IMG/VR virus record: IMGVR_UViG_3300033148_007258
Span: 3,997 to 67,996 of that record
From: a virus
DNA: 64,000 bases
Direction: 5' to 3' (one strand)
Part shown: in pieces, positions 8,905 to 42,960 of the stretch
Position numbering within the stretch: the first letter of the stretch is position 1
How the letters are laid out: every line of letters begins with the position of its first letter
The notes under the pieces: model-generated
What the model was told of the DNA's origin: nothing
Databases searched by the model: none
Seen by the model: only the letters and a program-made list of their open reading frames with translations
Made by a program: the position numbers and the translations under genes

Positions 8905-8910
8905 GGAATA

Positions 8911-11799: not shown

Positions 11800-11805
11800 A
11801 GGGAG

Positions 11806-12684: not shown

Positions 12685-12738
12685 TGCGAAAATCGGGGCG
12701 GGTTAATCGCCCGTCCCGAAGTTTCGGGATGACGACCT

Positions 12739-12885: not shown

Positions 12886-12887
12886 TT

Positions 12888-17106: not shown

Positions 17107-19287
17107 GTGGTGAAAACCAAGAAAAAGAAAGAGCCGAAAGAGACTAATTCCGCAAAAGATAAAAGGCTTCACAAGGACATTCTTACCGAAATACAGGCGG
17201 ACGAAACAGCCAAAGAGTCTTTTGAGGCGACGTGGTGGGAGTGTTTTTATTTTTATATCGGGCAGCAGTGGCTTCGCTACATCCGTTCTTCTTCCAACAT
17301 CAACATGCCCGAACCTGTCAATATAAGCTCCAAAAGCATCCTTCCTGTAACGAATCATATACGTGAAATCTGTGAAGTTTTGCGGGGGAAGTTTCTCAAG
17401 CGACCGAGTATTCCCGGCGTTAGTTCTATCAACAGGTCGATTGAGAATCGTCGCGGCGCCGAGGGCGCCGACCACCTTGTGAAATACCGCTATCGCATCG
17501 ACAAAGACCAGTCGCGGCGTGTTGAAAGAGACACTATGCTGCAGATGTATGGTAATGCGTTCATCAAGCTGGTATGGAACAAGGATTTGGGCGAGGAATA
17601 CCCCGTGCCGACGGAATGGGAAGAGATTGACGATTTACAACAGCTAACGGTTATGGTTTGCCAGTACTGCGGGGAAATCGGCGAGGACAGTTATGACAAA
17701 TGCCCGATGTGCGGCGGCACTGACATTTACCCGCGCACTACGGAAAAGAAAAACAAGAAACGGATTCCCAGTAAATCCGAATGGAAAAAGCGTGGCGATA
17801 TTGAAATTGAGCTTAGGTCGCCCTTTAATATTATTCCCTACAGATATGCAAAAAACTGGGAAGGTCTTGTTCATCTTACCGACAGGTCGGTACGACACAC
17901 TTCATGGGTCAAGCAACATTTTCCCGACATAACAATCAGTGAGGACGAGCTTGAATCCGTTGATTCGATTGATGAAGATGCGGATGTCGCCATGCTGGGC
18001 GGAGACGTCAGCAACCCGCCTGCCGTAGCCGCGTCCGGGATGGTGAGAATATATGAGCATTATAAGCGCCCCTGCAAGGAATATCCTAACGGGCTGGTTG
18101 TTCTGCTCACGAAGGGACAGATACTTTATAAAAAAGAACGGATGCCGTATTTTGACAACCTGCCAAAGAAATACATGGATTATCCCTATATCCATTTCAA
18201 GTATTCTATTGTGCCGGGAATGTTTTGGGCGCAGGGCGCTGTTGAGCCGCTTATTCCGATACAGAAGCAGTTCAATCAGCTTGACCGCCACATTATTATC
18301 TGGACGAAAAAGAGCATCGGGTCAAAGATAATTGTGACGAATGACTGCGGTCTACTCCAGAAGGATATTAGCGGTTCTGAGGGTGAAATCTGGAATTTTG
18401 ATTATAAACCGAACCAACCGGCGCCACAGATAATACCGGGCGTTGATTTGCCGATAGGCGTGTGGAAGCGGCGGGAGGATTTGAAGCTCGACATGTATCG
18501 CGTGAGCGGCGCGGAGCAAATCATCAGGGGGGAAACCGGCGCCGGCGAAGAATCGGGTATTGCTATAGGAATCAAGCAGGAAAACGCTCAGGACAGACTC
18601 TTGCCGATACTTGAGGGCATTGACGAACAGGATATTCAATACCACAGGCGCAAGTTGATGTATTTGCAGCAGTTTGCAGATTACGATCAGCAGATTGACA
18701 TTATCGGCAAAGACGGCAAGCCGGAAGTTGTGAGTTTTAACAGCAAGGATATTGGCAATAATTTTAATGTATTCATGGACACGGGAACTGGGGGCGTCCG
18801 GTCGCACACTATTGATATGCAGTTTGCTCTTGACCTTATGGATCGTGAGGTCATTGACCGGGTTGACCCGAAGATGCGCACCGAAATCGTCAAAAAGGCG
18901 GGGCTGCCGCAGTTTACCCCTGATTATTCGGATGACGAGAAGAAGGCTGAGCGTATTATCGACCGCCTGAAGGGCGGGGATTATAATGTGTCGCGGTATG
19001 AACCGATTAACCAGTTTGACGATGATGAGACTGTTTACCGGGTGTTGAGGTCGTGGATTATCAGTCCTTCATTTGAAGAACTGGTGAAAGATAATCCCGA
19101 ACTACTCGAACACGCCAATCGGGTATGCGGCGAATATTATGAACAAGTACAAAATGCTTTAGCGAATAGAATGCAAATGGAACAGGGAGCGCCTCCGGGC
19201 GGGCAGGCGTCGCCACCGCCGCAGGTTGAGGCTATGCGGGGAGGTATGCCGTCGCCACAGAGCGCGCCCCCTGTGGTCAGTATATAA
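17107..19287 (+). CDS. Portal protein
   Basis: 726 aa; position; FY.G.QW, YGNAFIK, PG.FW..GAVE.L..IQ..FN motifs; Pro/Gln tail. Confidence 0.85.
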   Translation: MVKTKKKKEPKETNSAKDKRLHKDILTEIQADETAKESFEATWWECFYFYIGQQWLRYIRSSSNINMPEPVNISSKSILPVTNHIREICEVLRGKFLKRPSIPGVSSINRSIENRRGAEGADHLVKYRYRIDKDQSRRVERDTMLQMYGNAFIKLVWNKDLGEEYPVPTEWEEIDDLQQLTVMVCQYCGEIGEDSYDKCPMCGGTDIYPRTTEKKNKKRIPSKSEWKKRGDIEIELRSPFNIIPYRYAKNWEGLVHLTDRSVRHTSWVKQHFPDITISEDELESVDSIDEDADVAMLGGDVSNPPAVAASGMVRIYEHYKRPCKEYPNGLVVLLTKGQILYKKERMPYFDNLPKKYMDYPYIHFKYSIVPGMFWAQGAVEPLIPIQKQFNQLDRHIIIWTKKSIGSKIIVTNDCGLLQKDISGSEGEIWNFDYKPNQPAPQIIPGVDLPIGVWKRREDLKLDMYRVSGAEQIIRGETGAGEESGIAIGIKQENAQDRLLPILEGIDEQDIQYHRRKLMYLQQFADYDQQIDIIGKDGKPEVVSFNSKDIGNNFNVFMDTGTGGVRSHTIDMQFALDLMDREVIDRVDPKMRTEIVKKAGLPQFTPDYSDDEKKAERIIDRLKGGDYNVSRYEPINQFDDDETVYRVLRSWIISPSFEELVKDNPELLEHANRVCGEYYEQVQNALANRMQMEQGAPPGGQASPPPQVEAMRGGMPSPQSAPPVVSI

Positions 19288-20423: not shown

Positions 20424-21650
20424 GTGGCTGTTTTAAGACCAACAGATGTTACTGAAGCACTAAAACGTCAACAGGCGGAAAAAGCAATAGAACTGATGAA
20501 CACGAGCGCACCAACATTCGGACGGATTCCGGTTGCTAAGGAAAAAATACGCGGTAACGGTATTTATTTATCGGTTAATACCACAGCACCCTGGGGTTCG
20601 ACCGGCGCTCGTAATGTGGATGAAACTCTGCCGATTGCACAGCGTTCGGCGTGGCAGAACCCCATTATCACGGCTAAATACCGGTATACGCGGGTTCATC
20701 TGGCAAATCAGTTGATTGCACTGGCACAGAACTATAAAGACGCTTATGTTGTTGCGAAAGCCAATGCGGAACTCGCCGCCATGAAGACTTTCTACAAGCT
20801 ACAGAATTGGCATGTTTTTCGAGATGCTAAGGGTACGCTCGCAGTGGGGTCTGAATGTCCGACTGCAACAACCATGACCATGGCTTCGCCCGATTATACG
20901 CGCGGGTTAAAGCCGGGTATGCTTGTCGATATAGCGGATGCGGGTACGGAAACAACGGCAAATGTTGAATCTATTACCATCAGCACCATTGATCGTCCAG
21001 CATACACAGTAACCTTCAGCGATACATGCAACACAAGTTTTGCTTCGGGAGATACCGTTGTGATGCAGGGCGACCGCGATACGACCGCCACGAAGAATAT
21101 TTGCGGGTTCAAATCCGGGATTATCTCTTCAGGCACGTATTTCGGCGTCAACGTTGGAACGTATGAAGAATGGGCAAGCAACGTCAAGACCTTTAGCGGT
21201 ACGCCAACGCCCTTGACGGAAATGAACATGTTTGAGGTTCTTAACCTTATTGAAGCGAATACAGGCAGTGGCGAGATGAACCTTGAGCTGCTTTGCAACC
21301 AGCCGGTCTATAACGAGTATTATTTGATGCACGTTCCTGCGGCGCGGTACGAACAGGGCAAGGCTATTAAGGGTGGACATACCGGGTTATACTTTCAGGG
21401 TCATGAACTTATCAAGGATACTGACTGTCCCGCGGATGATATGTTCTTCTATGAACCGACGACATGGAATAAGTATGAAGTTCAGCCCGATCAGTGGGGA
21501 GATTCAGGAGGCAAGTGGCAGAGTGAATCGTTGTCTGGCAATAAGGATAATGTTGGAAGTTACTTCAGGAGCTATATGGAAGTCGCATGTAAAGCGCCAA
21601 AGAAAAACGGTCGCTTAGGCGACATTTACACCAGCCAGACGGTGAAATAA
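20424..21650 (+). CDS. Major capsid protein (HK97 fold)
   Basis: 408 aa after scaffold; ETLP, GL.F.G..LI.D.DCP, AC..P.KNG motifs. Confidence 0.85.
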   Translation: MAVLRPTDVTEALKRQQAEKAIELMNTSAPTFGRIPVAKEKIRGNGIYLSVNTTAPWGSTGARNVDETLPIAQRSAWQNPIITAKYRYTRVHLANQLIALAQNYKDAYVVAKANAELAAMKTFYKLQNWHVFRDAKGTLAVGSECPTATTMTMASPDYTRGLKPGMLVDIADAGTETTANVESITISTIDRPAYTVTFSDTCNTSFASGDTVVMQGDRDTTATKNICGFKSGIISSGTYFGVNVGTYEEWASNVKTFSGTPTPLTEMNMFEVLNLIEANTGSGEMNLELLCNQPVYNEYYLMHVPAARYEQGKAIKGGHTGLYFQGHELIKDTDCPADDMFFYEPTTWNKYEVQPDQWGDSGGKWQSESLSGNKDNVGSYFRSYMEVACKAPKKNGRLGDIYTSQTVK

Positions 21651-23845: not shown

Positions 23846-25458
23846 TAGAGCGCCTATATAATACCAGTCAGGGTGCGAATCCCGACGAATCGCCGGTCAG
23901 GTTAATGTCGGAATATGCCGTGATGATGAAGAACATGGTGTATGATGAGGGAAACAATATTGTGCGGCGTCGGGGAATGCAGCGTATTACCGAGACTCCG
24001 ATATTTGATACGGATGCTGTGACGGAACTGCCGATTGATGCGCTGTTTTATACACAGACAGAAGCGGGGGACGGTCACTGGGTTGCTTTTGCAGGCACAG
24101 GTGCGCACGTATTCAACGAGACGAAGGGCGACTGGGACACCTTTGTACAGACGGGATTAACGGCGGGCTTGCAATGGTGCGGCGTTACATTCAACGGGAC
24201 ATTCATTGCAACCAACGGCACGGACAAGATGCAGAAATGGGCGGGCACGGTTGATGATGAAGGCGTTCCGACCGGATGGACGACGGTAGATGATAACGGC
24301 GAGGGCGGCTTTTACAGCAACATTCCCTATCCGAAGTATATAGCGGTTCATAAAAACCAGCTTTTTGCGGCGGTATACCGTGATACGGCAGGCGGCGAAA
24401 TTCACTATAATCAAGTACGATATTCACCGATTACGCCGACGGTAACACCGTTTCAAGACTGGGATGCTAATGATATTTTCAACGTCAAACTCAACGAGCC
24501 GGTTTCAGGGATACTGTCAGACGCCCACAGTGATGTTCTTGTAATAACATCGGTAAACCAGACCGAGATACTTACCGGCAGTAGCAGTGCGAACTTTGGG
24601 CAGGTTCTTGTTTCTGGCGACACTGGCTGTCTTTCGCAAGCGACTATGGCTAATACCGATCTGGGCTTAGTATGGCTTTCCAAGCAGGGTGTGGTTGTAT
24701 TCGATGGCAGCGCCGTGCAGAAGTTTTCGACTAACGTAGATAGATATTTTCGGGGATTCAATACAGACAGGTTCGAGTATGCGTGTGCCGCTTATTATCA
24801 GGGATACAACCAACAGAAGAAATGGTATCTGCTGAGCGTCACGCTCAAGTATGAAGAGGAGACGCTGGATTACAACAATTTCATACTGGGGTTTGATTTC
24901 AACAGGGATGCCGCCGCTTTTACCATAACCGGCTGGGATGCGGACTGTTTTGCGGTCGGGGAAAGCGAAAACAGCGACATACTCTATTTCGGCGACCGGA
25001 ACGGGCTTGTGTGTCGTGCGGACTATGGGTTTGACGATGACGGCAATCCTATTGATTCACAGTTGATTCTTGGGCCGTTCACGGGCGGAGACATGGTTTA
25101 CGAGAAGGCTTATCATAATGCGCACATACTGCTGGCGAACGTCAGCCCGCTTACGCTGAAGTTTACCTATTCAACGGACTTAGAGAACCTTGAGGATTCG
25201 GACGGGAACACGGTGTTGCCGAAATCGCGGAGCATAGATTTTACCGGTCTTGAGACGCCGGATTTATTCAACAGCGTGAAGTTTGACCAAGAAAAGGTGT
25301 GGGAGAATTACGCATTCAAAGAACATACGATTGCGCTGCCGCGGTTGACGGGGAAGACGTTGTTTTTAGGAATTGGCAATTCAGGCATTGTGAAAGATTA
25401 CGCAATACATGGCGTGCGCGTAGATTCGTATGAACATGGAATGTCGAGGGCGGTTTAA
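23845..25458 (+). CDS. Tail nozzle/stabilisation protein (P22 gp10-like); first ATG at 23905, possible ATA start at 23845
   Basis: N.....G.I.RRRG, NG.D.MQ.W, GC.S..T, WLS..GV..FDG motifs. Confidence 0.7.
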   Translation: MERLYNTSQGANPDESPVRLMSEYAVMMKNMVYDEGNNIVRRRGMQRITETPIFDTDAVTELPIDALFYTQTEAGDGHWVAFAGTGAHVFNETKGDWDTFVQTGLTAGLQWCGVTFNGTFIATNGTDKMQKWAGTVDDEGVPTGWTTVDDNGEGGFYSNIPYPKYIAVHKNQLFAAVYRDTAGGEIHYNQVRYSPITPTVTPFQDWDANDIFNVKLNEPVSGILSDAHSDVLVITSVNQTEILTGSSSANFGQVLVSGDTGCLSQATMANTDLGLVWLSKQGVVVFDGSAVQKFSTNVDRYFRGFNTDRFEYACAAYYQGYNQQKKWYLLSVTLKYEEETLDYNNFILGFDFNRDAAAFTITGWDADCFAVGESENSDILYFGDRNGLVCRADYGFDDDGNPIDSQLILGPFTGGDMVYEKAYHNAHILLANVSPLTLKFTYSTDLENLEDSDGNTVLPKSRSIDFTGLETPDLFNSVKFDQEKVWENYAFKEHTIALPRLTGKTLFLGIGNSGIVKDYAIHGVRVDSYEHGMSRAV

Positions 25459-25775
25459 TGGGCATTTCGCCGTTACACAGGATACACACGGGGCGCGCAT
25501 GGATTGACAGGGCGCTGAGTACGGTAGTTGATAAAATCAACGAGATGCTGAATTATGAGGTGTTGACGTGTACGTTTAGTGAAGCGAATACGGATACGGC
25601 GTTTATGCATAATCTCGGCAAGATACCGAACAGGTTTCATGTAATTGCCATTGAGGGGGCGTATTCATACGGCATTATCACAAAGGGAACGACTGCCAAT
25701 ACGAACATACGGGCTTATTTTCAATGCACGATGGCGGGCGTGACCGCTTATATAAAGGTGTGGCGTGAAGACTAA
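25458..25775 (+). CDS. Small virion protein
   Basis: HNLG.IP motif; TAATG coupling. Confidence 0.55.
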   Translation: MGISPLHRIHTGRAWIDRALSTVVDKINEMLNYEVLTCTFSEANTDTAFMHNLGKIPNRFHVIAIEGAYSYGIITKGTTANTNIRAYFQCTMAGVTAYIKVWRED

Positions 25776-25776
25776 C

Positions 25777-26202
25777 ATGGAAACATTGACGGATTTAATA
25801 AAACGGCACGAGGGATTCAGGGAGACCGTTTATAAATGTCCGGCGGGCAAACTGACGGTCGGTTACGGGCATAACCTTGAAGATAATCCGATGTCGGAGC
25901 AGGTTGCGGAAATGTTGCTTGACGAAGACATAGATGAAGCGATTGAAAACTTGAAACAGGTTATTCCTGTGAACAAGCTGAAATATGAGAATGTGGTAAG
26001 GTTTAATGCGCTTGTTACTATGATGTATATATTTGGACTGGAGGGATTTAAGGGTTTTCGTAAGATGGTAGCCGCCTTAAAACGAGACCCTATAGATTGG
26101 TCGCTTGTAGCGGCGGAAGCGATGGACAGCCGGTGGTACAGGCGGTATCCGGTACGCGCTTCCGAGATAGTGCGGATGCTTCAATTTGGGGTGATGACTT
26201 AA
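25777..26202 (+). CDS. GH24 (T4-like) lysozyme
   Basis: HEG...YKCPAGKLTVGYGHN, DSRW motifs. Confidence 0.85.
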   Translation: METLTDLIKRHEGFRETVYKCPAGKLTVGYGHNLEDNPMSEQVAEMLLDEDIDEAIENLKQVIPVNKLKYENVVRFNALVTMMYIFGLEGFKGFRKMVAALKRDPIDWSLVAAEAMDSRWYRRYPVRASEIVRMLQFGVMT

Positions 26203-26203
26203 A

Positions 26204-29041
26204 ATGAATATGAAAACATTGTTATATATATGCTTGATTATGGCGGTGTCGGGCACGGCGTGGGGACAGACGGCGGTGCATGATACGAGCACCGCGTTCG
26301 ACGATGGATACATATACGCTTCTGATTCGCTTTACAGTGTAGCACGGGGGGCGACGACCGGCGATGGCGCTCAATCCACTTATCTTTGGTTCGGGCAATA
26401 CGATGATTTTGGCGGAGATAGTCTTATTGTTCGTGCGTTTCTCACCTTTGGTTTTGGCGATATTCCGGGAGGCGCAATCATTGATAGTGCAAAAATTATA
26501 TTTGATGGCAGGACCCCTAATTACGGTACTCATTTTTGGTATAATATTTATGTGGCGACATATTCTTCAATTGTTACATCAGAGTTTAATGCGTTCATTG
26601 GCTGGCAAAGCGGAATGCAGACATATACGGGAGATTCGTTGGCAATTTCACTTTATTCAGGGGATTATTCGGCAGACGACAACGTGATGTATATGAGGCA
26701 GTCAGGGCTTGATAGTATTACGGCTCACATCGGAGACAGCCTTAAATTGGTGATACTGAGCCGTGAAGATGTAACAGCAGACACCCCAACTAATGAAGAA
26801 AAAATACAATTTGAGGACAGCGCAAAAATAATTGTCTCATATCATACAGGGAGCGGTGATTCACCGCGTACTCTTACAAACTTTGATGTTTATGCGGCGG
26901 GACAGGATACGGCGCTTTATACCGTTCATGCCGATACCGGCGATTTTTCTATGTGGGATAGTATCATTGTGTATGACGCGACAGATACGGCGACAGTTTA
27001 CGGTGTATTCACGAGCGGGTCTCTGGCGGACACGGCGGGTACTCTAAGCAATTTGACGATCAATACTCTCGATACCCTGATTGCGGTGATGTACGCTCCG
27101 GTCGATACAATAGTTTATTCACTAACCGACACCATTACAACGCTTTCAGCGCCTTCCCAAAATTATCATTATGTACGCGCCGGAGCTACAGGTAATAATG
27201 ATGGTACAGACTGGACGAATGCGTGGACGGAATTACCTGCAACTTTAATACGCGGAGATACTTATTATATTGCAGATAGTACATATTCAGAATATACTTT
27301 TGACGATGCTGAAGATGACAGCACGTATATTTATATCAAGAAAGCAACCGAATCAGCGCACGGCACTGACACAGGATGGGACAGCTCATACGGTGATGGG
27401 CAGGCAATATTTACAGAGCAAATAAACTTTCTTAATGGATACTATATATGGGACGGTGTTACAGGCTCCGGAAGTGATACTACCTCATACGGGTTCAAGG
27501 TAACCTGGGATGGCGATACTACTGTTGAACATTACTTAGTAGGAATGCCAGGTATGGGTTACGGTACCTCACAGGTAGATCATATTACCTTTTCTCATAC
27601 GTCTCTGGCGTGTCCTGGTGAAGCTGCAAGTAACGGAGGAGCGCTGGCTAATATGAGTATTTATTCAGCTCCTCGCAATGCAGGTTATGCGGCAGAACAA
27701 ATAACTATATCAAATAATTATTTGGCATTCGGCTCTTCTAATATGCTTATTCGATTTTGGCGTAATTGTATTATAGAAGGCAATTATTTCGATGCTAATT
27801 GGAGTAGTTCACAAAATCATGGTCAGGCGATTTCTTCAGGGACAGATAGTACTGTAATATTAAGGAATAATACGTTTAAAGACCCATTGGTTTTTATATT
27901 AGGAGGGCATAATCAGGAGAACTATAATTGGAACATATATAATAATCTTGTTATTGGCGGGGATTTAACGGCAGGATTTGGTCTTGCGGAGTCATATCGA
28001 ACAGATGCTTTTAGAAACTGTGATATGTACCATAATACCTTTATCGGTGTTGACTTTGGGGGGCGAGGCGCATTGTTTGTGGGCACTTTGTCGGATACGA
28101 CAAACGCTACCAGCAGAGCTTACAATAATTTGTTTTATAATTGTATTCATCCACGTTTAGACAATGCTGATGCCACTGGAGACCCTGCAATCTATCACGA
28201 TTATAATATTTATTATAATTGTACCGGTAATTTTTATCCCGATTCAAATGATGTTGTTACAACAGGCGACCCGTTTATTGATTCGGCTAATGATGATTTC
28301 AGACTTAAGCAGGCGACTGCTGCCGGTGTTCCTCTTTCTTCTCCATATAATGTTGATATATTAGGTAATGTCAGAGGCGCCGATGGTTTTTGGGACAGGG
28401 GAGCTTATGAATATACCGCCGGAGGCTTTAATGTGTCCAATGTTACTGTAAGTGACACAACGTACCGGTCGGCAATTATTTCTTTCGATACGGCAGCAAC
28501 GACGGGGCTGGATTCGTTTGTTGTAATATCGGCGTCGGACAGCAGCGAGCTTGAGAATTTCTGGCATTCGACCAGCGGGATGCTGGACTCGGCAAAAACG
28601 CTGACGAAAGATTCTCTTTACAACTATCGGATTGTGGCGTACTATGACGGCGTTGACACTTTTTATACTGGTCCGCTCAGCTTTACGACGTTGGATGACC
28701 GATATGTCAACAATCTGCGGCTGACTGACATCGGGCTAACATCCTGTACGGCTGAATGGGACACGTCTTACGGCGCTGTTAAAACGGCATTTGATAGCAT
28801 GAGAGCAATTAACGATGCGGATTCAACACTCCTGAAAATGTTTGGAACGGATACGACCGGCGTTATAGATAATCTGACGCCGGAAACGACATACTGGATC
28901 AGGATCGTGGGATATGCCAGCGATACGTTGTACTATTCAAATAAAGGCAAAATAAGGACTCTTGGAAATGTTTTATACAGGGGGAAACCATCGGGCTGGA
29001 ACGGCAAGAAGCGGCATGGTTGGAACAGGGGCGGCGGTTAA
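26204..29041 (+). CDS. Large exported beta-rich protein (DNRLRE-like, beta-helix and FN3-like regions)
   Basis: Signal peptide ending TAWG-Q; YVRAGATG.NDG.DW.NAW start and DFRL...DRGAYEY end of beta-helix region. Confidence 0.7.
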   Translation: MNMKTLLYICLIMAVSGTAWGQTAVHDTSTAFDDGYIYASDSLYSVARGATTGDGAQSTYLWFGQYDDFGGDSLIVRAFLTFGFGDIPGGAIIDSAKIIFDGRTPNYGTHFWYNIYVATYSSIVTSEFNAFIGWQSGMQTYTGDSLAISLYSGDYSADDNVMYMRQSGLDSITAHIGDSLKLVILSREDVTADTPTNEEKIQFEDSAKIIVSYHTGSGDSPRTLTNFDVYAAGQDTALYTVHADTGDFSMWDSIIVYDATDTATVYGVFTSGSLADTAGTLSNLTINTLDTLIAVMYAPVDTIVYSLTDTITTLSAPSQNYHYVRAGATGNNDGTDWTNAWTELPATLIRGDTYYIADSTYSEYTFDDAEDDSTYIYIKKATESAHGTDTGWDSSYGDGQAIFTEQINFLNGYYIWDGVTGSGSDTTSYGFKVTWDGDTTVEHYLVGMPGMGYGTSQVDHITFSHTSLACPGEAASNGGALANMSIYSAPRNAGYAAEQITISNNYLAFGSSNMLIRFWRNCIIEGNYFDANWSSSQNHGQAISSGTDSTVILRNNTFKDPLVFILGGHNQENYNWNIYNNLVIGGDLTAGFGLAESYRTDAFRNCDMYHNTFIGVDFGGRGALFVGTLSDTTNATSRAYNNLFYNCIHPRLDNADATGDPAIYHDYNIYYNCTGNFYPDSNDVVTTGDPFIDSANDDFRLKQATAAGVPLSSPYNVDILGNVRGADGFWDRGAYEYTAGGFNVSNVTVSDTTYRSAIISFDTAATTGLDSFVVISASDSSELENFWHSTSGMLDSAKTLTKDSLYNYRIVAYYDGVDTFYTGPLSFTTLDDRYVNNLRLTDIGLTSCTAEWDTSYGAVKTAFDSMRAINDADSTLLKMFGTDTTGVIDNLTPETTYWIRIVGYASDTLYYSNKGKIRTLGNVLYRGKPSGWNGKKRHGWNRGGG

Positions 29042-29652
29042 TGAGACGGGCGCTGCGGTTCAAATACACGATAGGCGCCGCGATATTTTATATCGTTCTT
29101 TTTGCGGTGGTAATGACATTTTTTTGCGATGCGGCGGGAGCGCAGGTTAAGGATTTTGTGGGAAAGCCGGTTAAAGGCGCGTTTCTGCGGCTGACGGATG
29201 CGAACAAATGGTACGTACCGGGACTGGATTCATGGGTAGTGGCGCACAGTTTTTTTGACGGCGTAAAAGATGCAAAGGAACATTATCTTGGCACGAACAG
29301 ATACTTCAAAGGCAAAGAGGATTGGCATACGTATAAGGCGCTTCGGGATATTTCGCTCATTATGGCTTCGCTTAACATGGCGCGTTCGATTTTTATTGAT
29401 AAAATGTCTTACAAAGATTTTACGAAGAGCGCTTTGAGGGCGGCGCTGATACGGGCGTTGGTTTTCGGCGTCGTTTATAAGACGGCTAAGGCGGGGTTTC
29501 CGGCGTACAACGACCCGTTTTTCAACCGGCACAGCATATACTATCCGACCGTGCGGGGCGGGCGAATTGTGGACGGATACATCGGGACGGGGCGGTTTAC
29601 GACAATAAGCGTGGACTTACTAAAATTAGCGGGGATATGGAAGCTAAGATGA
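29041..29652 (+). CDS. Exported or membrane hypothetical protein
   Basis: Hydrophobic leader ending AAGA-Q. Confidence 0.55.
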   Translation: MRRALRFKYTIGAAIFYIVLFAVVMTFFCDAAGAQVKDFVGKPVKGAFLRLTDANKWYVPGLDSWVVAHSFFDGVKDAKEHYLGTNRYFKGKEDWHTYKALRDISLIMASLNMARSIFIDKMSYKDFTKSALRAALIRALVFGVVYKTAKAGFPAYNDPFFNRHSIYYPTVRGGRIVDGYIGTGRFTTISVDLLKLAGIWKLR

Positions 29653-31937
29653 TACAATACAAAAAGATAGCGGTAATCGGGGCGTGTCTGCTGGGACTGG
29701 CGTTATGGTGTGCGGCGGTTATATCGTTCGGTAGCACGGAAGGCGGGGACTTTGCAAATGTTACCAGTGGCAGTGTATCGGTTGCCAGGCTGACGGATAC
29801 ATCGGCGGTTGTTATTTATGAGAATAGTGGGACGCCCAAAAGGGGTGAAGCTCGATTCGGGCGGGTTTCAGGTGACAGTATTTTAATAGGAAGCGCATAC
29901 ACATTTCCTGCTGGTAATATCTCGAATTATGTGCCAGCGGTCTGCCGTTTGAACGATTCTCTGTTTGCTATTTCTTATGTGTCAGATATGACGGCAGATA
30001 AAATTTTTACTGTCGTCGGTATATATGAAGCGGACACGTTGAGATTTACTGATTCCACACTTGTTGATGGTTTGAACGTCAATGGTAATGGTGATGTTGT
30101 TCGCCTTAATGATACAACATATATACTTGTTTATGCTGCACATACCAACAATGGATTTACGCGTAGGGCAACCTATACTTCCGATGGCACGGTAACACTT
30201 GGAGATTCTACCGAGTATGCGGGTGGTGGAACTGTGGGGTATCAATCGGCCGTTGCTATAACGGATACCAGTTTTGTTTTTATAGATGTACAGGGGAGGG
30301 CATATATAGGATATTATTCTGCAACACATGGAGACACTATAACATATTCCCCCCGCTTTGATATTCAGCCCGCAAACATTAATTATGATGGTGATTTGTT
30401 ATTGTTGAACGACAGCACCCTTATTGCGGGTTATGTTGATTTATATGGTGCAATTGATACGGCAAAAGTGGCAGTCGGGCGTATTGTGAATAATGATTCG
30501 ATTTACTTTTATAAAGGTACTGCTTTTTATCATGGCGACCTTGTAACAAGTATGAGTCTTGCAAAAACAGGAGTTGATAATTTTGTTATTAATTATGAGG
30601 CTCCTGAAAATAATGGCAAAGCCGTTTCGGTAAATCTTGTAAACGATACGGCATTTATGTTCAGCGATACATCTACCTTCAGCATGACGGGTATGAACCG
30701 ATTTGCGGCGGATTATCTCACTACAAATAAGTATTTTTTTGGTTATGACTACAGTGGGACTGGTTATCTGACCATAGGCACAGTTACGGGGGGATTGTGG
30801 AATCCCTACGGTGAAACCATGACGCCTATCAGCAAGACGGCATTTCGGTTCAGCGCGAAAGATTCAAGCGGGACGCGGCTTGTGCTGTATCTCTACGGCA
30901 CGGCGGGCGCTATACTGGATTCCGTGCAGAGTGCGGGCGGAAGCGGCGCTTATACATGGACGGATACCAATACTGACGCGACGCGGGATTGGAACCAGTT
31001 ATGTACGCTGTATGTCGCCGTCAAGGAGAGTCTTGCATACGGCGGAGATACTTTGATGACGCGCATGATTCAGTATACTTATGAGGATAAACCGGCGACG
31101 TTCACGTACAAGGGGTGGGCGGCGGATTCGCTGAAGTTCACGGTCGCCGACGCCGACACGGACATTATGTTTGTGCTCTACGATACGACGCGGAGCGTTT
31201 ATTACGGTGAGGACGGGGATACTTCCAGCACAATGCTCATAGATACCGTCAAGAACTATGACGGCAGCGTTATCACGGGCAAGGTGGACACGGCGGGCAA
31301 GTATGTTCTGCGGCTCGGCGGCGTCAACCCTGACAGCGTTGTCAACTGGAAGGGATATTATACCGCACGTTCTTGCAGCCGGATCGACAGCTTTTTTATA
31401 GGCTACCGCGATTCTACCAGTTTGACGCTGTATGTTGCGGATACGACCGGCACGGGCATACAGTACCGCGTTACCAATGTTATGACCGGCGACATCGACA
31501 CTCTGGCGCGGACACAGGCGGACGGCGTGGTTGGTTCTTATACACTGGGCGGTCTTTCATACAATACGGTTTACCAGTTCAGTATCGTGCGAGACGATTC
31601 AGGGGCGACCATTCCGTCAAAGTTACAGGCGGATTCGCTTTTTACCGACCCGACCGAACCGACGCTGACGCTGACGCGGCTTAGCGCGGATACCGTGCAG
31701 GTAACGCTGGCGGGCAACGGCAATCCCGACAGCACCTATTATTATCTATTCGACCGCTATCAGCGGGACATGGTAGATACTACGGCTTATTATGTCGGAA
31801 AGACGGCATATCAGGCGAGTAAGTTCTGGGCTACGTTACAGTGGTGGAACGGGCGGAAGTTCGCTTACATGGATAATACGCTCCCGCGCATTATCAACGT
31901 GCGCTGGTCGTCAGGGATAACAAAACCAATCCATTAA
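29649..31937 (+). CDS. Large exported protein with about 7 propeller-like repeats and FN3-like C-terminal region
   Basis: Hydrophobic leader; repeats such as VARLTDTSAVVIY, VCRLNDSLFAISY, VVRLNDTTYILVY. Confidence 0.65.
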   Translation: MIQYKKIAVIGACLLGLALWCAAVISFGSTEGGDFANVTSGSVSVARLTDTSAVVIYENSGTPKRGEARFGRVSGDSILIGSAYTFPAGNISNYVPAVCRLNDSLFAISYVSDMTADKIFTVVGIYEADTLRFTDSTLVDGLNVNGNGDVVRLNDTTYILVYAAHTNNGFTRRATYTSDGTVTLGDSTEYAGGGTVGYQSAVAITDTSFVFIDVQGRAYIGYYSATHGDTITYSPRFDIQPANINYDGDLLLLNDSTLIAGYVDLYGAIDTAKVAVGRIVNNDSIYFYKGTAFYHGDLVTSMSLAKTGVDNFVINYEAPENNGKAVSVNLVNDTAFMFSDTSTFSMTGMNRFAADYLTTNKYFFGYDYSGTGYLTIGTVTGGLWNPYGETMTPISKTAFRFSAKDSSGTRLVLYLYGTAGAILDSVQSAGGSGAYTWTDTNTDATRDWNQLCTLYVAVKESLAYGGDTLMTRMIQYTYEDKPATFTYKGWAADSLKFTVADADTDIMFVLYDTTRSVYYGEDGDTSSTMLIDTVKNYDGSVITGKVDTAGKYVLRLGGVNPDSVVNWKGYYTARSCSRIDSFFIGYRDSTSLTLYVADTTGTGIQYRVTNVMTGDIDTLARTQADGVVGSYTLGGLSYNTVYQFSIVRDDSGATIPSKLQADSLFTDPTEPTLTLTRLSADTVQVTLAGNGNPDSTYYYLFDRYQRDMVDTTAYYVGKTAYQASKFWATLQWWNGRKFAYMDNTLPRIINVRWSSGITKPIH

Positions 31938-31951
31938 GGTGGTGGAAATAA

Positions 31952-32650
31952 ATGCCGAGAACACGCGAAGGCGGGACACAAGAAGAAACATTGATGACAC
32001 AGGCGGCATATCCTATTGTTGCTCGTCCCGTTGACTTTTATTATGACGGCGAGCGATATAACAACACAGGATATTTCAAGTGGAAACGGGATTCGTTGAC
32101 ATCGTATTATTATCTGGAGCGGTGTGCGACTTTTGACGGGACATTCGCACTGGTTACTGACGGCAAGATAACCACTCCGGCAAGCGGCACATGGGTGTCG
32201 TTCAGGGATGTTGATGTTGACCCGCGCTCGTTTTATTACCGCCTGCGGGCACAGGACGGCAACCTGAATTACAGCCGGTATGCTGGTCCAATCAAGCCGG
32301 GCGACACGTCCAGCGAATGTATCGTGAAGGTGTACGTCAAGAAATCCAACGGCGCTGTATATACCGGCGAGAATCGTCCGATAGTGAAGCTCGTGCCGGA
32401 AGATGCGGACAAGATATTTGAGTTTAATAGCGCTAAGATATATTCTACAGAAAAGAACGTGGGTGTACGCTGTGAGGAGAAATCGGGATATGCAGAGCTG
32501 ACCGTGCTTCGCAGTTCGGCAATCAGTAATTTAAAGTATAAACTGACAATAATAATCGGCGGTGAACCGATAACAGAGACGGGTATAACCATACCCGACC
32601 AAGCGGAAGTCTGGCTGAACGATTTAGTTACTTGGCTTCCGGCAGCATAA
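31952..32650 (+). CDS. Putative virion protein with FN3-like domain
   Basis: W....YYLER...FYYRLRA.D...NYS pattern; no signal peptide. Confidence 0.55.
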   Translation: MPRTREGGTQEETLMTQAAYPIVARPVDFYYDGERYNNTGYFKWKRDSLTSYYYLERCATFDGTFALVTDGKITTPASGTWVSFRDVDVDPRSFYYRLRAQDGNLNYSRYAGPIKPGDTSSECIVKVYVKKSNGAVYTGENRPIVKLVPEDADKIFEFNSAKIYSTEKNVGVRCEEKSGYAELTVLRSSAISNLKYKLTIIIGGEPITETGITIPDQAEVWLNDLVTWLPAA

Positions 32651-36997: not shown

Positions 36998-39900
36998 ATG
37001 AACGGACAGGATAAGAAAAAAGGTTTAATGTCATTAGTGCAGCGGACGTTTAGTGGCGCAGCGCCATCGTTGCCTCAAGCGGGGCAAACGGATAGGCAAA
37101 CGCAGCTAAAATCGCTGATTAGCAAAACGTTCGGGGGATTACCAGAACCTACTCAAAAGCCACCGTCTTTTGGAATGCCAGAGATTAAACCCGTTACCGC
37201 TCCGGCAAGCAGCGCGGCTGTTGCACCCTCTGCACTGCGGGCACAGCGGGCAAAGAGCGTCAAAAAGCGTGGTGGAATGACTGACGAAGAATGGTCGCGT
37301 GTATTAGGTATACCGATACCCGAACCGGAAAAACAGAGTCTTTACAAGGAGATTCAAAGCGTTTTGGCACGCGGCACATCGGCGGCGACGTTCGGGTTGA
37401 GTGATTTAATTCCCTTGCCGGGTGGAAAGGGTGCGCGTGATTTACAACCCAAATCAACGGCGGGATCGCTGGCGGGTGCGGGTGCAAGCGTTTTAGGTTT
37501 TATTAAAGGCGCTCCTGTCAAGACCGCCAGTAAATTATTGGAAAAAGCTGTACCGAAAACACTTGTTGGAGCAATGGGCAAGAGTGGCGCGACATTAGGG
37601 CTGGCGTCTGGATTGTCTGAAGTATTACCAGCCGCCACTACCAGCGATAAGCCCGTTGAGGATATTTTAAAGAGCACAGCTACCAGCGGTGTAATTGGCG
37701 CTCTATTCCCCGTGTCTGGAGCAATAACCAACAGGGTGTTAAGAATACCTGTCGCATTGGCTGTTTTTGACAAGATACGAGCGGGAACAGGACAATGGTT
37801 TACCGCCGACGACGTTCTTAGAGGACTCAAGGACGGCACAATAGATAGTAAGGAATTAGCAAATCACGCTTTCAATTATCTGTTGGAGTCTTATTTTGTG
37901 ACAAAACAACCGGCATTACGCAGGTCTTTGGTAGCTTTAAAAAAACAGGCGGAAACCACAAAAAAACCTATACCCAGGGATAAACTTGAATCACTGTTTA
38001 AGAAATATAAGGCGGAACCGGAGACTAAAGAGGCTCCTGTTGAGCCACCCGCAAAACCCGAAGCGCCGCTGGAAACGGGGAAACCCGTCCTTACTAAACC
38101 GTTCGCAGAAAAGCAAGTAGCCCTCGAAGCCAAAGGTGTGCCGTCGGAAGGGAAAGCGGATGTATCGACCATGGGAGCATCTATAGAACAAGCAAGGACG
38201 ATGTCAGAGAAGACTCAGAAAATGTTCGATAAACAGCGCGCCGATATTAAGCAGCTAAAGTCAGGCAGATACCAAAGATTAAAAAATAGCATTAAAAGAG
38301 CCACAGTGGATGTAAGTGGGAACGTAAAGAATGCGCTCTTGAAAAACGGCGGAGAAGAAGGACTGCGAGCGGTGCGGCGCTTCAACCTTCGCAAGGGTGC
38401 AACCAGTAAGGCTCAAGCGATTATCAACAGGTCTTTTGATCGGGTATTCAAAGGATTGTCAAAGAAAGATGAACGTCTTTTATATGATGTCATACAAGCG
38501 AAACGAACCATTGCCATAGATGAATATAAACCAGAAATGCGGCATCCGGGCGGTTTGGGTGGAGATGCCATGAAGCAATGGCTTAACGATCCCACGAAAG
38601 TTCCTACTGAGAAGCGGGCGATGCTTGAAGAAAGGGCAAATGAATATTTTAATGTCATGCGAGAGCAGCTTGGCGATTTATATAAAAACGGGCTATTAAC
38701 GCAAGAACAATATAATAACCTATTAGCCAAAGGCGACTATTCAAGCCGCAAGTTTATACAGCATATTGATCCCGAAAGAACTGGACTTGACAGACAGGGG
38801 CGTAGGATCAGTGTCCCCGACAGTGGCATTAGGGCATTAACATCGGGGAGTGAAAAATCGTTATCAAACAACGCCCGTGAACTTTTATCTGAAGTGGTGA
38901 CGAGGACACAATCGAGGATATTGCGTAACAACGCCAATAAGGCGCTTTATGAAGTAGCTAAAAAGAATCCCAATAATGGTGTTGTGTCGTTGGAGAAGGC
39001 TATTCGCACGACTAAAGCGGGAAAACCTGTTTATCAAAAGCCCACCGCTGATTTTGAAAAAATAAGTGTTATGATAGACGGGAAGCATAAAGAAATGTTG
39101 ATGCCGAGAGACATGGCGGCTGAGTGGACGATGAACGACCCATTAATTAACCAAACATTAGCTACTGTTATCGGCTGGCTTTCCGGTTCTAAAATCTTAA
39201 AACCTTTTGCAACCGGATTGAACCCCGGATTTGCAGTGCCGAATTTACCAAGGGATATTGCGCATATCTGGGTGGCATCAGAACAGTATTCTTCCACACT
39301 TCCAGTATATCTCGCACAAATGGCACGCGATTTACATACTGTTAAAAAAGATGCTTTTACACGTAAGGGGCGATGGGAAAAATATATAGACGAGGGTGGT
39401 GGCATGGAGTTCCTTACCCATCAGGGGCGACTAAAACCCAGCTCTCGTGGAGTATGGGGCGCCCTCCAAAGGTTTATGGGTTATGTTGGAGAAACATCGG
39501 AGATAGGGACGAGGCTTGCACTCCGTGAAAGGGGAATACGCAATGGGCTTTCCCCTGAAGAAGCAACGGCAGAAGCGCGGGATTATCTCGACTTTAGTCA
39601 AGGGGGGTCGTTTGTTAAGGCCCTTGATTCTGGCATACCCTATTTAAACGCTGGCGTTCAGGGGACACGGGGCATTGTCAGGGCGGCGCAACGCAATCCA
39701 GCTCGTTTTGCATATCAAATTGCACAACTTGGCACAATAGCATCCAGTTTATATTTAGCAAACCATCACGTCAACAAAGAATGCTGGGATGCGATTTCTG
39801 ATAGAGAAAAAATAAACAATTTCATTATCACAACACCCTTTTCCTATAAAGATAAAAACGGCAACACGCGATACATATATTTCAAAATAGCGAAAGACCA

Positions 39901-40774
39901 GGGACAGAGGGTTTTTGCTACCATATTCGAGAGCTTGATGGGCAAGTATTTAGGTGAAGATATTGATCTGAGTATGGCGGTAAAGGCGGCGGAAGATGCC
40001 ATACCCATAATTCCGACACAGTCAATTCCACCGTCAATAGATGCACTTTTGGGATATGCTTCCAATTACGATTTTTGGAAAGACGAGAATATATGGAAGG
40101 GCACAGAAGATATAAAACCGGAATTGGAATATAATAAATATACTAATCCAGCGTGGAAAAAAGCGGGAGAGATAACGGGGCTTTCGCCGGAACGTCTCAG
40201 TTTTGGGGCACAGCAGTTTTTTACTTACGGCAATATTTGGACGGCTATGGCAGGTGAGGGGTATAAACAGTTAAAGCAATTAACGCAGGGCGGTCCGGCA
40301 GGCGAAGATGAACGGAAGTTTGTTGAAAGGCTTATACACCTGCCTGTTGTACGCAGGTTTGTGAGTTCCACGTCTCCGTATCAGGAAATTAGAGATGAGA
40401 TTAAAGGGCTGAAGGTTGAGGAAAATTCCAGAAGAACATTGCAGAATCGCGAATTTGACAAACTTTTAGATAAGAAGTCGAACGACAGCACATTAAGGGC
40501 ATATCTTGTAAAACAATCACCAGAAGACAGAACACGGCTCCTACAAAGAATGAAAAGATACAGACGGCTTGAGGATGTTCCCGAAAGGTCTTGGTGGTTA
40601 CAGATTGCCGATTTAGCGCCAGAGCAAAGGGCGCAGGTTTTTTATAAGAAATATTCTCAAGCTGATGAATCCCAAAAAAGGGTGTTGTTGAAATATGCAA
40701 AGACGGTTCCCGGTATTACATCAGAAAGATTTCGGAAAAAATTTATAGAACTCTCAAAAATAAACAAGAGGTGA
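36998..40774 (+). CDS. Large internal virion protein (LPD38-like C-terminal region)
   Basis: TG.NP.F...N..RD, LDFSQGG, IPYLNA.VQG, N.DFW motifs. Confidence 0.7.
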   Translation: MNGQDKKKGLMSLVQRTFSGAAPSLPQAGQTDRQTQLKSLISKTFGGLPEPTQKPPSFGMPEIKPVTAPASSAAVAPSALRAQRAKSVKKRGGMTDEEWSRVLGIPIPEPEKQSLYKEIQSVLARGTSAATFGLSDLIPLPGGKGARDLQPKSTAGSLAGAGASVLGFIKGAPVKTASKLLEKAVPKTLVGAMGKSGATLGLASGLSEVLPAATTSDKPVEDILKSTATSGVIGALFPVSGAITNRVLRIPVALAVFDKIRAGTGQWFTADDVLRGLKDGTIDSKELANHAFNYLLESYFVTKQPALRRSLVALKKQAETTKKPIPRDKLESLFKKYKAEPETKEAPVEPPAKPEAPLETGKPVLTKPFAEKQVALEAKGVPSEGKADVSTMGASIEQARTMSEKTQKMFDKQRADIKQLKSGRYQRLKNSIKRATVDVSGNVKNALLKNGGEEGLRAVRRFNLRKGATSKAQAIINRSFDRVFKGLSKKDERLLYDVIQAKRTIAIDEYKPEMRHPGGLGGDAMKQWLNDPTKVPTEKRAMLEERANEYFNVMREQLGDLYKNGLLTQEQYNNLLAKGDYSSRKFIQHIDPERTGLDRQGRRISVPDSGIRALTSGSEKSLSNNARELLSEVVTRTQSRILRNNANKALYEVAKKNPNNGVVSLEKAIRTTKAGKPVYQKPTADFEKISVMIDGKHKEMLMPRDMAAEWTMNDPLINQTLATVIGWLSGSKILKPFATGLNPGFAVPNLPRDIAHIWVASEQYSSTLPVYLAQMARDLHTVKKDAFTRKGRWEKYIDEGGGMEFLTHQGRLKPSSRGVWGALQRFMGYVGETSEIGTRLALRERGIRNGLSPEEATAEARDYLDFSQGGSFVKALDSGIPYLNAGVQGTRGIVRAAQRNPARFAYQIAQLGTIASSLYLANHHVNKECWDAISDREKINNFIITTPFSYKDKNGNTRYIYFKIAKDQGQRVFATIFESLMGKYLGEDIDLSMAVKAAEDAIPIIPTQSIPPSIDALLGYASNYDFWKDENIWKGTEDIKPELEYNKYTNPAWKKAGEITGLSPERLSFGAQQFFTYGNIWTAMAGEGYKQLKQLTQGGPAGEDERKFVERLIHLPVVRRFVSSTSPYQEIRDEIKGLKVEENSRRTLQNREFDKLLDKKSNDSTLRAYLVKQSPEDRTRLLQRMKRYRRLEDVPERSWWLQIADLAPEQRAQVFYKKYSQADESQKRVLLKYAKTVPGITSERFRKKFIELSKINKR

Positions 40775-41346
40775 TGGGCATGAGTAAAATCAAAGACTCG
40801 AAAATGATTATTGTGGCGGCGCTGGTTGTCCTGCTTAGCGCGGCAGGGGTTACTGTCGGCGCGAAAAACAGAGCCAGCCCGGCGGCGGAGTACGGGTTCG
40901 ACCGCACTAATGTTTCTTATATCGTGTACAGTGAAACGGATTCGCTGGAGGGCACGGCTGATACATTATATAGCAATGTCTACGCGATTCCGCGGGCTGA
41001 GTATTTCTCATTGTCGGTAGTTCTGGACACGAATACTACGGCGAACAGCGGCGGCGTTCTGCCGAAAGTGGGGTTACAGTATGCCATATTGAGCACAAAC
41101 CGGCGGTTTCTCTTACAGGACGACAGCACGTCTATATGGTGTACGTTGACGGACAGCATTCGGAGTTTCGCGGATTTTACCAATACACACGCGAATTTCG
41201 ACAGCGACTTGAGCGGCAATGAATACGGCGAGATTCACACCGTTGCACCGGCGCCGTGTATTTATATTCTTTTTAGAATTTACACAGCGACAGGGCACGC
41301 GGCGGGCAGTGTTTATCGGTATGTCATGGAGTTTTTCCCACAATAA
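40771..41346 (+). CDS. Exported beta-rich protein with D-S/T sequons
   Basis: Leader IIVAALVVLLSAAGVTVGA. Confidence 0.55.
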   Translation: MMGMSKIKDSKMIIVAALVVLLSAAGVTVGAKNRASPAAEYGFDRTNVSYIVYSETDSLEGTADTLYSNVYAIPRAEYFSLSVVLDTNTTANSGGVLPKVGLQYAILSTNRRFLLQDDSTSIWCTLTDSIRSFADFTNTHANFDSDLSGNEYGEIHTVAPAPCIYILFRIYTATGHAAGSVYRYVMEFFPQ

Positions 41347-42249: not shown

Positions 42250-42960
42250 TTAAAACGAGATACCTAAGCTAAGGGGAATGTACTGCGTATTGTCATCGTC
42301 GGTAAAAATAATGCAATATCTGGCTTCGAGAAAGAGGTCTACATCGGGACTTATCGGAAAGAATAAACCCGCACCAATGTTCAGAATTGGCTTTGTTTCA
42401 CTGTCACCATCAAGTGAAAAGGAATCGCCTCTGTAATAAAAAGATATGTCATCTATTGAAAAATAGTTTATTCCCATTCCCCCCAAAAGATAAAACTTGG
42501 TTGAACTTTCTTTTGGTGATAATATTGTTTTCAGGCTTAATGTAGCAGATAAGGCAGAGGCGTTGGCACCACTAATTGTCAAGCCGGAAACATTTCTAAT
42601 ATTCACACCGGACTCATCGCTTACCCAATCAAGAAAACCATCTTCATCAAATCCAAACATAATATAATGGCTATTTATATTTAAATAGAGGGTTTTCGTT
42701 AGCGGTATATTTGTGCTACCCAAAAACCCAAACCCATTGTTCCAACAATCGCCGAATTCATCAGGTGCGGAAGGAAATGAATATATAAAACCGAACCCCC
42801 CTTTAGTTTTAACCCCTTCTTTGTTTTGAGTTTCTTGCTCATTGGTTGTTTGTATTATCTGCGGCGGCGGCGCAATAGCCTCAACTTTGGTTAGAGAAGT
42901 ATATCCGCATTGCACAAAACTTGCGGACACGAATAAAGCAACGATTAAAAAACGCTTCAC
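42250..42960 (-). CDS. Outer-membrane beta-barrel protein
   Basis: Signal peptide; alternating beta-strands; C-terminal LSLGISF. Confidence 0.75.
   Translation of the reverse strand: MKRFLIVALFVSASFVQCGYTSLTKVEAIAPPPQIIQTTNEQETQNKEGVKTKGGFGFIYSFPSAPDEFGDCWNNGFGFLGSTNIPLTKTLYLNINSHYIMFGFDEDGFLDWVSDESGVNIRNVSGLTISGANASALSATLSLKTILSPKESSTKFYLLGGMGINYFSIDDISFYYRGDSFSLDGDSETKPILNIGAGLFFPISPDVDLFLEARYCIIFTDDDNTQYIPLSLGISF

Follow-up and report, generated by a model that had tools for sequence, protein, structure and literature searches.

Known substrates of the general O-glycosylation system of Bacteroidota include TfsA and TfsB, S-layer proteins of T. forsythia. Substrates of this type are described as being exported by the Sec pathway and then glycosylated in the periplasm (PMC12871550, PMC8550257). 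The system has been called the only motif-driven O-glycosylation in bacteria, its motif being enriched mainly in the Bacteroidota of the GTDB; D is obligatory, the third residue is L, I, V, T, A, S, or M, and in B. fragilis Glu cannot substitute for Asp (PMC12871550). Modification requires export, engineered motifs are glycosylated, and the system works across species and on foreign proteins (PMC12871550, PMC8550257). For T. forsythia 312 sites in 145 glycoproteins are reported, TfsB being the most heavily glycosylated with 20 predicted sites, and one glycan amounts to roughly 1.7 kDa (PMC8550257). Here we analyse a window of 64,000 nucleotides, bases 3997-67996 of one 67,996-bp virus record (IMGVR_UViG_3300033148_007258), in which four genes, p945, p766, p292, and p191, encode proteins with predicted export signals and an excess of the tripeptide D-(S/T)-(A/I/L/V/M/T), called the sequon below. 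We give about an even chance to the reading that these four are O-glycoproteins which are made and exported late in infection, are released by lysis, and act on glycans outside the cell without being part of the virion.

Sequon excess in proteins with predicted signal peptides

The two longest of these proteins, p945 (945 aa) and p766 (766 aa), are encoded at 26204-29041 and 29637-31937, both on the plus strand. Sequons were counted in 61 plus-strand open reading frames (ORFs), for each of which 2000 composition shuffles were made. With 29 sequons against 6.69 expected in p945 (z 9.4; 3.07 per 100 aa) and 25 against 5.29 in p766 (z 9.3; 3.26 per 100 aa), the observed counts were reached by none of the 2000 shuffles, and the excess is not explained by D/S/T composition. 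The same signature is found in p292 (292 aa; 11806-12684, plus strand), whose gene shortly precedes the terminase genes and in which 8 sequons are seen for 1.3 expected (z 5.9), and in p191 (191 aa; 40771-41346, plus strand), the start of which overlaps the stop of the gene for a 1258-aa protein, with 4 against 0.9 (z 3.4). Across these four signal-peptide proteins the enrichment is four- to six-fold. The major head protein and the portal carry two sequons each, p517 and the 1258-aa protein one each, all at or below expectation, and other beta-rich proteins of the phage are not enriched. In the original prediction the sequons of p945, p766, and these four virion or virion-type proteins had been counted by hand; all six counts were reproduced exactly.

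The excess is specific for the motif. In p945 the reversed motif [AILVMT][ST]D occurs 8 times (6.8 expected), E[ST]h twice (1.6), N[ST]h once (4.5), and D[ST] followed by a residue other than A, I, L, V, M, or T 12 times (10.7). The control motifs of p766 are likewise flat, and G-first and D-[AGNQ]-h motifs are also at expectation in the enriched proteins. When the four enriched proteins are pooled, D alone is enriched at the first position (66 vs. 16.0; E 4 vs. 3.9) and S and T alone at the second, while at the third L, T, A, S, I, V, and M, and no others, lie above expectation. Twelve sequon-rich homologues show the same residue pattern at each position. The enriched residues equal the published motif position by position, which bears out the original identification of the tripeptide as the Bacteroidota O-glycosylation sequon. 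The coding sequences are diverse, with 28 distinct 9-mers for the 29 sequons of p945 and 22 for the 25 of p766, and nine S/T codons in use; the signal is therefore one of the protein and not a DNA repeat. The excess is strongest in the non-repetitive N- and C-terminal parts.

As a baseline for sequon density we used 20 regions, each at most 20 kb long, of sampled genomes of the Bacteroidota phylum. ORFs with a crudely predicted signal peptide contain 120 sequons there against 76.6 expected (1.57x), and the other ORFs 179 against 178.6 (1.00x). The corresponding figures for the phage are 71 against 17.2 (4.1x) and 18 against 25.9 for the remaining ORFs. Both p945 and p766 exceed all 247 baseline ORFs of at least 200 aa, the densest of which has 2.05 sequons per 100 aa. 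This ORF and the second densest (1.9 per 100 aa) lie in the same Bacteroidota-phylum genome (L209, 6892 and 18577), and in both the signal peptide at the start leads into an H-Y-V-S...G-S...S-W motif similar to the N-terminal cap in the beta-helix family of p945.

The N-termini of p945, p292, p191, and p210 look like cleavable Sec signal peptides. p210 (210 aa; 29020-29652, plus strand), encoded between p945 and p766, contains no sequon, and its N-terminus is a signal or an anchor; it has neither homologues nor family matches. The predicted cleavage sites, marked by a slash, are ...GTAWG/QTAV in p945, ...DAAGA/QVKD in p210, ...GDAQA/QKVE in p292, and ...VTVGA/KNR in p191. p766 has a predicted signal or signal-anchor within aa 1-33, and its site would be KK-IAVIGACLLGLALWCAAVISFG/STEGG. 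The Sec-type N-termini claimed originally for p945, p766, and the gene starting at 29020 were thus found again, that of p766 being possibly an anchor. Gln stands at position +1 in three of the five predicted sites, which fits the Q-rule of Bacteroidetes, for which mean Q-values of 71% in Bacteroidetes, 77% in Ignavibacterium, and <9% in most Chlorobi have been given (PMC5837995). In the database the gene for p945 is called from Met13 onwards; however, the closest homologue of p945, P0002, encoded on the 160-kb viral contig L001, has a different signal peptide and the same mature start QTAVHDTSTAFD, as is usual in the evolution of signal peptides. Among 98 non-overlapping ORFs of the genome, all those with a z of at least 3 start with an N-terminal signal-like segment.

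Domain architecture and relatives of p945 and p766

p945 can be divided into a signal peptide (aa 1-21, 26204-26266), a CBM96-like N-module (aa 22-320, 26267-27163; 14 sequons), a right-handed beta-helix (aa 320-740, 27161-28423; 7 sequons), and two FN3-like repeats followed by a basic Gly-rich tail (aa 741-945, 28424-29038; 8 sequons), all on the plus strand. In an AlphaFold2 (AF2) model made from a 58-sequence alignment the beta-helix reaches a predicted local distance difference test score (pLDDT) above 90; the ends are unmodelled, with pLDDT <50 in the N-module. With Foldseek the beta-helix finds GH136 lacto-N-biosidases, the pectate lyase Pel9A, and PL6 lyases (E 1e-7 to 1e-4), and also the phage depolymerases Kp32gp38 and CBA120 TSP2. 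The family profile weakly matches GH120 and GH110 chains (E 5e-7 to 1e-4). The N-module resembles CBM96 clusters in the ESM Atlas (0.93, 0.92, and 0.92; 187-193 shared features). As modelled, this architecture makes p945 a candidate for a secreted glycan-degrading enzyme in which a CAZyme-type beta-helix is flanked by a CBM-like module and FN3-like repeats.

p766 consists of a 7-bladed beta-propeller (aa 28-384, 29718-30788; 11 sequons) and a beta-rich C-terminal part (aa 385-766, 30789-31934; 14 sequons), both on the plus strand. The propeller is modelled by AF2 with a pLDDT of about 90, and Foldseek gives generic propellers. When pieces of p766 were used in blastp, the only relatives of the C-terminal part were P0116, P0120, and P0147, which bear DNRLRE or Disaggr_repeat domains. 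These three have 18, 41, and 28 sequons, respectively (z >5); each begins with a signal or an anchor, and in two cases Gln stands at +1. For p766 as such no relatives were found in IMG/VR or by a word-based protein search, and for its C-terminal family a viral alignment scan and a metagenome scan with P0147 were both empty; a search of 301 Bacteroidota genomes with P0147 gave weak matches to DNRLRE domains in four. From the models p766 is most likely a glycan- or surface-binding protein.

Homologues of both proteins served as controls. The beta-helix family of p945 (113 database matches and 80 genome loci, from many phyla) is widespread and comprises secreted proteins; in these A-N-H-Y-V-R-x-G-A comes directly after the signal peptide. 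Only 9 of the 112 non-self database homologues of p945 reach a z of at least 3, only 3 of the 149 homologues of p766 are sequon-rich, and wherever the context of a sequon-rich homologue could be read it was a viral contig. The 43 cellular beta-helix homologues, again from many phyla, have z values of -1.6 to 0.4 except two from Spirochaetota (3.2 and 1.9); one copy from Cytophagales has no sequon, and none of 80 metagenome loci contains a sequon-rich ORF. In the 33 IMG/VR loci with a member of the family, 26 ORFs start by eye with a signal peptide and 6 do not. The propeller homologues of p766 are mostly without a signal peptide and flat, with a median z of -0.25 among the 150 matches listed. 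Two homologues that are not sequon-rich (P0004 and P0007) bear Por_Secre_tail.

These controls bear on the possibility that there is no glycosylation at all, the excess being a structural habit of beta-rich folds with an Asp in the turn and a Ser or Thr at the start of the strand, or the host not being Bacteroidota-like. The models speak for such a habit in so far as 10 of the 11 propeller sequons lie at the turn immediately before a strand, and some members of the propeller family have the blade motif L-D-S-T-x-F-V-V; Shine-Dalgarno (SD) use and a promoter motif unlike those of classical Bacteroidia, described below, point in the same direction. However, neither the homologous propellers and beta-helices nor the other beta-rich proteins of the phage are enriched, the reversed and the E-, N-, and G-first motifs are flat, the preference at the third position reproduces the glycoproteomic one, and the excess is highest outside the repeats, so we regard this explanation as very improbable. 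In the confidently modelled parts (AF2 models and DSSP strings) 16 of 18 sequons are situated in turns, loops, or strand edges; structure prediction had originally been proposed as a check on whether the sequons are exposed, and those modelled mostly are in such places.

The comparison of p945 with its copy on L001 shows which parts of the gene are shared. Nucleotides 61-1108 of the gene are 81% identical and nucleotides 2172-2733 are 89% identical (window 26264-27311 and 28375-28936 vs. L001 10001-11048 and 12033-12594), with an unrelated central beta-helix in between. The p945 gene thus reads as a mosaic produced by a cassette swap between otherwise unrelated phages. In the shared parts (81-86% identical) 20 of 23 sequons are kept, compared with about 12 expected under free substitution; the sequons are conserved between the two copies. 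Near 12031-12037 the L001 copy passes into another reading frame, perhaps by a true frameshift or by an error in the assembly.

Sequon-rich copies of the beta-helix gene are present in L001, L096, and L109. In the siphovirus L096 an endolysin gene (9317-9811) lies directly upstream of the signal-peptide beta-helix gene (9917-13813), as the lysozyme gene does of p945 in the window; in L096 the two genes are inserted where the head genes adjoin the head-tail adaptor, a long way from the tape measure. In L109 (9932-13880), a viral contig unrelated to L096, the signal-peptide beta-helix gene comes first and the endolysin follows. In L001 the gene lies among genes for DNA polymerase, ribonucleotide reductase (RNR), and a methylase. 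Endolysin adjacency is confined to three of the five sequon-rich contexts, since no endolysin was found beside the beta-helix gene in L001 or L098. L098 carries three signal-peptide ORFs at 7065-9914 (266, 223, and 231 aa; 6-8 sequons each, z 4.4-5.3), situated after a 2333-aa ORF and before a signal-peptide beta-helix gene; a similar 2309-aa ORF is found upstream in L109.

Among cultured phages, the Bacteroides phages B40-8 and B124-14 encode annotated tail fibres (as ORFs, 1937 and 2015 aa) that lack a signal peptide and contain 8 sequons, with 6.3-6.5 to be expected. Both phages encode a membrane-anchored ORF of 201 aa after the endolysin (B40-8, L218 15801-16406; B124-14, L219 6768-7373), spanin-like by position, with 5 and 4 sequons, respectively, against 0.8 expected (z 5.0 and 4.2). 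This pattern indicates that periplasmic proteins of Bacteroides phages can be sequon-rich and that their known virion fibres are not. Nothing comparable was found in Flavobacterium phage 11b.

Position in the late operon and possible roles

Large terminase (TerL, 13387-15339), portal (17107-19287), and major head protein (20424-21650) are recognised by PHROG and Pfam. p517 (23905-25458, plus strand), termed the nozzle in the original prediction, has weak matches to PHROGs of virion structural and internal virion proteins (E 4e-7 to 2e-5), and no homologue in the PDB, the protein database (word-based search), or IMG/VR. It is followed by a 145-aa phage lysozyme of the endolysin type without signal peptide (25765-26202, plus strand), the stop of which lies 1 nt ahead of the p945 start. 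A 105-aa ORF upstream of the lysozyme was considered as holin and ruled out, a transmembrane segment being absent. Neighbouring plus-strand genes touch or overlap over a stretch that runs at least from 19342 to 41346; the stop/start boundaries around our genes are 26202/26204, 29041/29020, 29652/29637, and 31937/31952, with gaps of at most 26 nt. p945, p210, p766, and p191 are thus inside a tightly packed late operon, and there is no space for a promoter or terminator of their own. Only over the p945-p766 stretch of this operon (26001-32000) is the AT skew negative (-0.02 to -0.04), and the GC content falls to 0.44 at 26-28 kb; both shifts could come from foreign origin or from D/S/T/Y-rich codon content.

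From these features we propose the following course of events. The four proteins would be synthesised late, from one tightly packed operon together with the virion proteins, and be exported by the Sec pathway of the host. In the periplasm a general O-glycosylation system of the Bacteroidota type would modify any exported D-S/T-(L/I/V/T/A/S/M) site; given the export and motif rules of this system, a phage protein with a working signal peptide should be glycosylated at most of its sites in such a host. Fully glycosylated p945 would carry about 49 kDa of sugar, as calculated from 1.7 kDa per glycan. Neither p945 nor p766 has a lipobox or the C-terminal domain of the type IX secretion system (T9SS; Por_Secre_tail, PF18962; Pfam E <= 0.01), and therefore the proteins are expected to wait in the periplasm, or in the case of p766 in the inner membrane, until lysis. 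Afterwards they would be long-lived, glycan-shielded soluble factors outside the cell. Candidate targets are polysaccharides of the envelope or matrix, and the effect could be depolymerisation, destruction of receptors on debris, or loosening of an outer layer at lysis. Selection for so many sites suggests a protein that must survive outside the cell; in the exported gene of the lysogeny module there are no sequons. We rank the soluble role first because of the secreted-enzyme architecture of p945, the contexts of the homologues, and the normal fibres of the cultured phages. The original prediction had named late-expressed cell-surface proteins as an alternative; as late, exported proteins outside the virion, these come nearer to our reading than virion spikes do.

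The surface could also be altered in the lysogen, if the exported glycoproteins served lysogenic conversion or superinfection exclusion. In phage lambda Lom and Bor alter the lysogen surface, and lom is an exported moron known inside a tail region. The phage in the window is temperate as judged from a tyrosine integrase (47850-49016, plus strand; phrog_1, E 1.7e-54) and a divergent repressor on the lysogeny side (42984-43418, minus strand). Signal-peptide proteins of P. gingivalis prophages that follow the Q-rule were likewise read by their authors as surface modifiers (PMC10367356). Conversion genes would, however, find no room for their own promoter or terminator here, as their starts abut or overlap late genes, and the four genes are dispersed across the late operon. 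Moreover, 5.7 kb of enzyme-like multidomain proteins are large for a moron. The sole exported gene of the lysogeny module, a lipoprotein-like ORF of 236 aa beside the repressor (MKRFLIVALFVSASFVQC...; 42250-42960, minus strand), has no sequon; it is itself a candidate for a lysogeny-expressed surface protein. We therefore hold conversion to be improbable.

The original prediction placed p945 and p766 on the particle. Spikes or adhesins would be exported, glycosylated in the periplasm, and dock on spike-less particles after holin holes or lysis, providing the virion with a host-made glycan coat. Nothing we computed supports such an attachment after export, and we consider it unlikely. The family of the beta-helix is one of secreted cellular proteins whose signal peptide stands directly before the domain, and the N-module of p945 looks CBM96-like rather than like a particle anchor; PHROG and Pfam detect no tail-fibre, tailspike, or particle-binding domain in p945 or p766. 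The same N-module is common, at 81% identity, to the 160-kb phage, where the gene lies amid DNA-metabolism genes, and in L096 the homologue is situated between head and adaptor genes instead of after the tape measure; these sequon-rich homologues on phages are thus placed away from receptor-binding slots. Two of the four sequon-rich genes, p292 and p191, carry the signature outside the tail slot, and the annotated tail fibres of three cultured Bacteroidota phages lack both signal peptide and excess. In the literature searched no tailed phage routes virion parts through Sec.

In favour of the virion model, the genes occupy a place in the late operon that has a putative tail protein on one side and large internal-type proteins on the other, PHROGs and Pfam recognise no further receptor-binding candidate in the genome, and the central beta-helix has been exchanged between kept flanks as in tailspikes. 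P22 tailspikes add late and spontaneously to finished heads, so spikes that come last are not without precedent. The beta-helix matches the depolymerases Kp32gp38 and CBA120 TSP2, most of the Atlas proteins that resemble the p766 propeller or the p945 N-module in structure come from Uroviricota, and the extreme sequon density suggests a long extracellular life. Several of these points weigh directly against the non-virion part of our own reading: the translational packing among virion genes, the want of another recognised receptor-binding candidate, and the two folds, beta-helix and propeller, both typical of appendages. A component of the virion, too, would be well served by heavy shielding.

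To the same side of the balance belong the following observations on our reading of the proteins as exported, lysis-released glycoproteins. The signal peptides were predicted by hydrophobicity and the -3/-1 rule, which is a heuristic, and the 20-residue hydrophobic region of p766 may be cleaved (SFG/S) or stay as an uncleaved anchor. Signal-like N-termini without any sequon are found in p210, the 236-aa lipoprotein-like ORF, and p190; conversely, a few sequon-rich ORFs have no signal peptide, for example in L082 (332 aa, z 4.8) and L113 (510 aa, z 4.2). p945 and p766 match no family in Pfam or NCBIfam. For the N-module of p945, PF24517 and NF033679 gave no match and hhalign against DNRLRE segments a probability of 7%; the CBM96-like assignment, coming from language-model features, is accordingly to be taken as a lead.

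The host belongs here as well. A Bacteroidota-type host is suggested by the motif specificity and the Gln at +1. SD-like motifs (AGGA, GGAG, or GAGG within 17 nt upstream) precede 26 of 60 plus-strand starts (43%, background 12.6%), compared with 14% of 290 starts from the 20 sampled Bacteroidota genomes (0-36% in single regions) and 5-20% in three cultured Bacteroidota phages. The -7 promoter motif of Bacteroidetes, TAnnTTTG, is not enriched (44 vs. 53 expected). SD use and promoter signals are thus atypical of classical Bacteroidia and Flavobacteriia; as a conjecture, the signals would be reconciled by a host from a deeper or little-studied branch of the phylum. TerL has no match in 401 sampled Bacteroidota genomes, an empty answer that proves little.

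The remaining features of the phage can be summarised briefly. No close relative was found among tailed phages: in 50,697 GenBank phages neither blastn nor tblastn gave a match to p945, TerL, or the region as such, and what the portal matched were actinophage portals at only 22-26% identity. No tRNA genes were found. Large polyvalent protein associated domain 38 (LPD38; E 6e-10) is present in the 1258-aa protein (36998-40774, plus strand), which also matches central parts of very large phage proteins. p292 has no family match. A 123-aa ORF at 9782-10153 has a lipoprotein-like start (MYARLCVVLFVFLCGC...) and one sequon, and a 523-aa ORF upstream of the window (genome 570-2141) begins with a hydrophobic segment and has 3 sequons where 0.7 are expected (z 2.6). 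Six short contigs of one sediment-metagenome DNA run cover 26563-28234 at 99-100% identity, from which we draw no claim on habitat or expression; no RNA run containing the region was among the sequencing runs listed.

Comparison with known systems

Glycosylation of tailed-phage proteins by a general periplasmic system of the host was not found reported in the full-text literature, a search that did not cover supplements and subscription journals. The word "phage" is absent from the 2025 review of the system (PMC12871550), and "glycosyl" occurs nowhere in the main text of the study on P. gingivalis prophages (PMC10367356). The core claim can be tested by heterologous expression, because the system is described as glycosylating foreign proteins that bear the motif (PMC12871550).

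If our reading is true, phages of Bacteroidota-like hosts tune their exported proteins for hyper-glycosylation by the host, at a density above that of the host's own S-layer proteins, and a host-dependent post-translational layer is added to phage biology. Possible effects are protease resistance, persistence of the released enzymes or particles, and perhaps mimicry of the host surface. A signal peptide combined with a sequon excess is also a simple signature, which could help to assign uncultured phages to Bacteroidota-type hosts and offers a way to find phage proteins acting outside the cytoplasm. Should the unlikely virion model hold instead, the coat of dozens of glycans would be a bacterial counterpart of the glycan shield that enveloped eukaryotic viruses acquire in the secretory pathway.

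With the tailspike depolymerases P22 gp9, CBA120 TSP2, and Kp32gp38, p945 shares the right-handed beta-helix, the exchange of the central domain, and the position in the late operon. However, these tailspikes are assembled in the cytoplasm without a signal peptide and bear a particle-binding domain at the N-terminus, whereas p945 starts with a signal peptide and a CBM-like N-module, and its relatives in sequence are cellular secreted proteins. A likeness exists also to secreted proteins that combine CBM96 or DNRLRE domains with a beta-helix, including those related to disaggregatase: p945 has a similar arrangement of signal peptide, CBM-like jelly-roll, beta-helix, and FN3/Ig repeats, although the membership of its N-module is indicated by Atlas features alone (0.93). 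Glycosylated virions are reportedly found in mycobacteriophages, in which phage-encoded cytoplasmic glycosyltransferases modify capsid and tail-tube proteins. Here, by contrast, no phage glycosyltransferase would be involved, and we propose that the periplasmic system of the host is exploited by means of sequons and export.

The Q-rule genes of P. gingivalis prophages (Matrishin et al. 2023, PMC10367356) are likewise phage-encoded and have Sec signal peptides that expose Gln, which were taken as an adaptation to the export machinery of Bacteroidetes. These genes have no assigned function; compared with them the proteins of the window add the packing with sequons, their size, and enzyme-like folds. 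The motif itself is shared with the S-layer proteins TfsA and TfsB of T. forsythia, substrates of the general O-glycosylation system; these are exported, as is predicted for p945 and p766, and like them are rich in D-S/T-(A/I/L/V/M/T) sites. In comparison with TfsB, p945 and p766 are phage-encoded and shorter and lack the T9SS C-terminal domain, yet they carry 29 and 25 sites, respectively, against 20.

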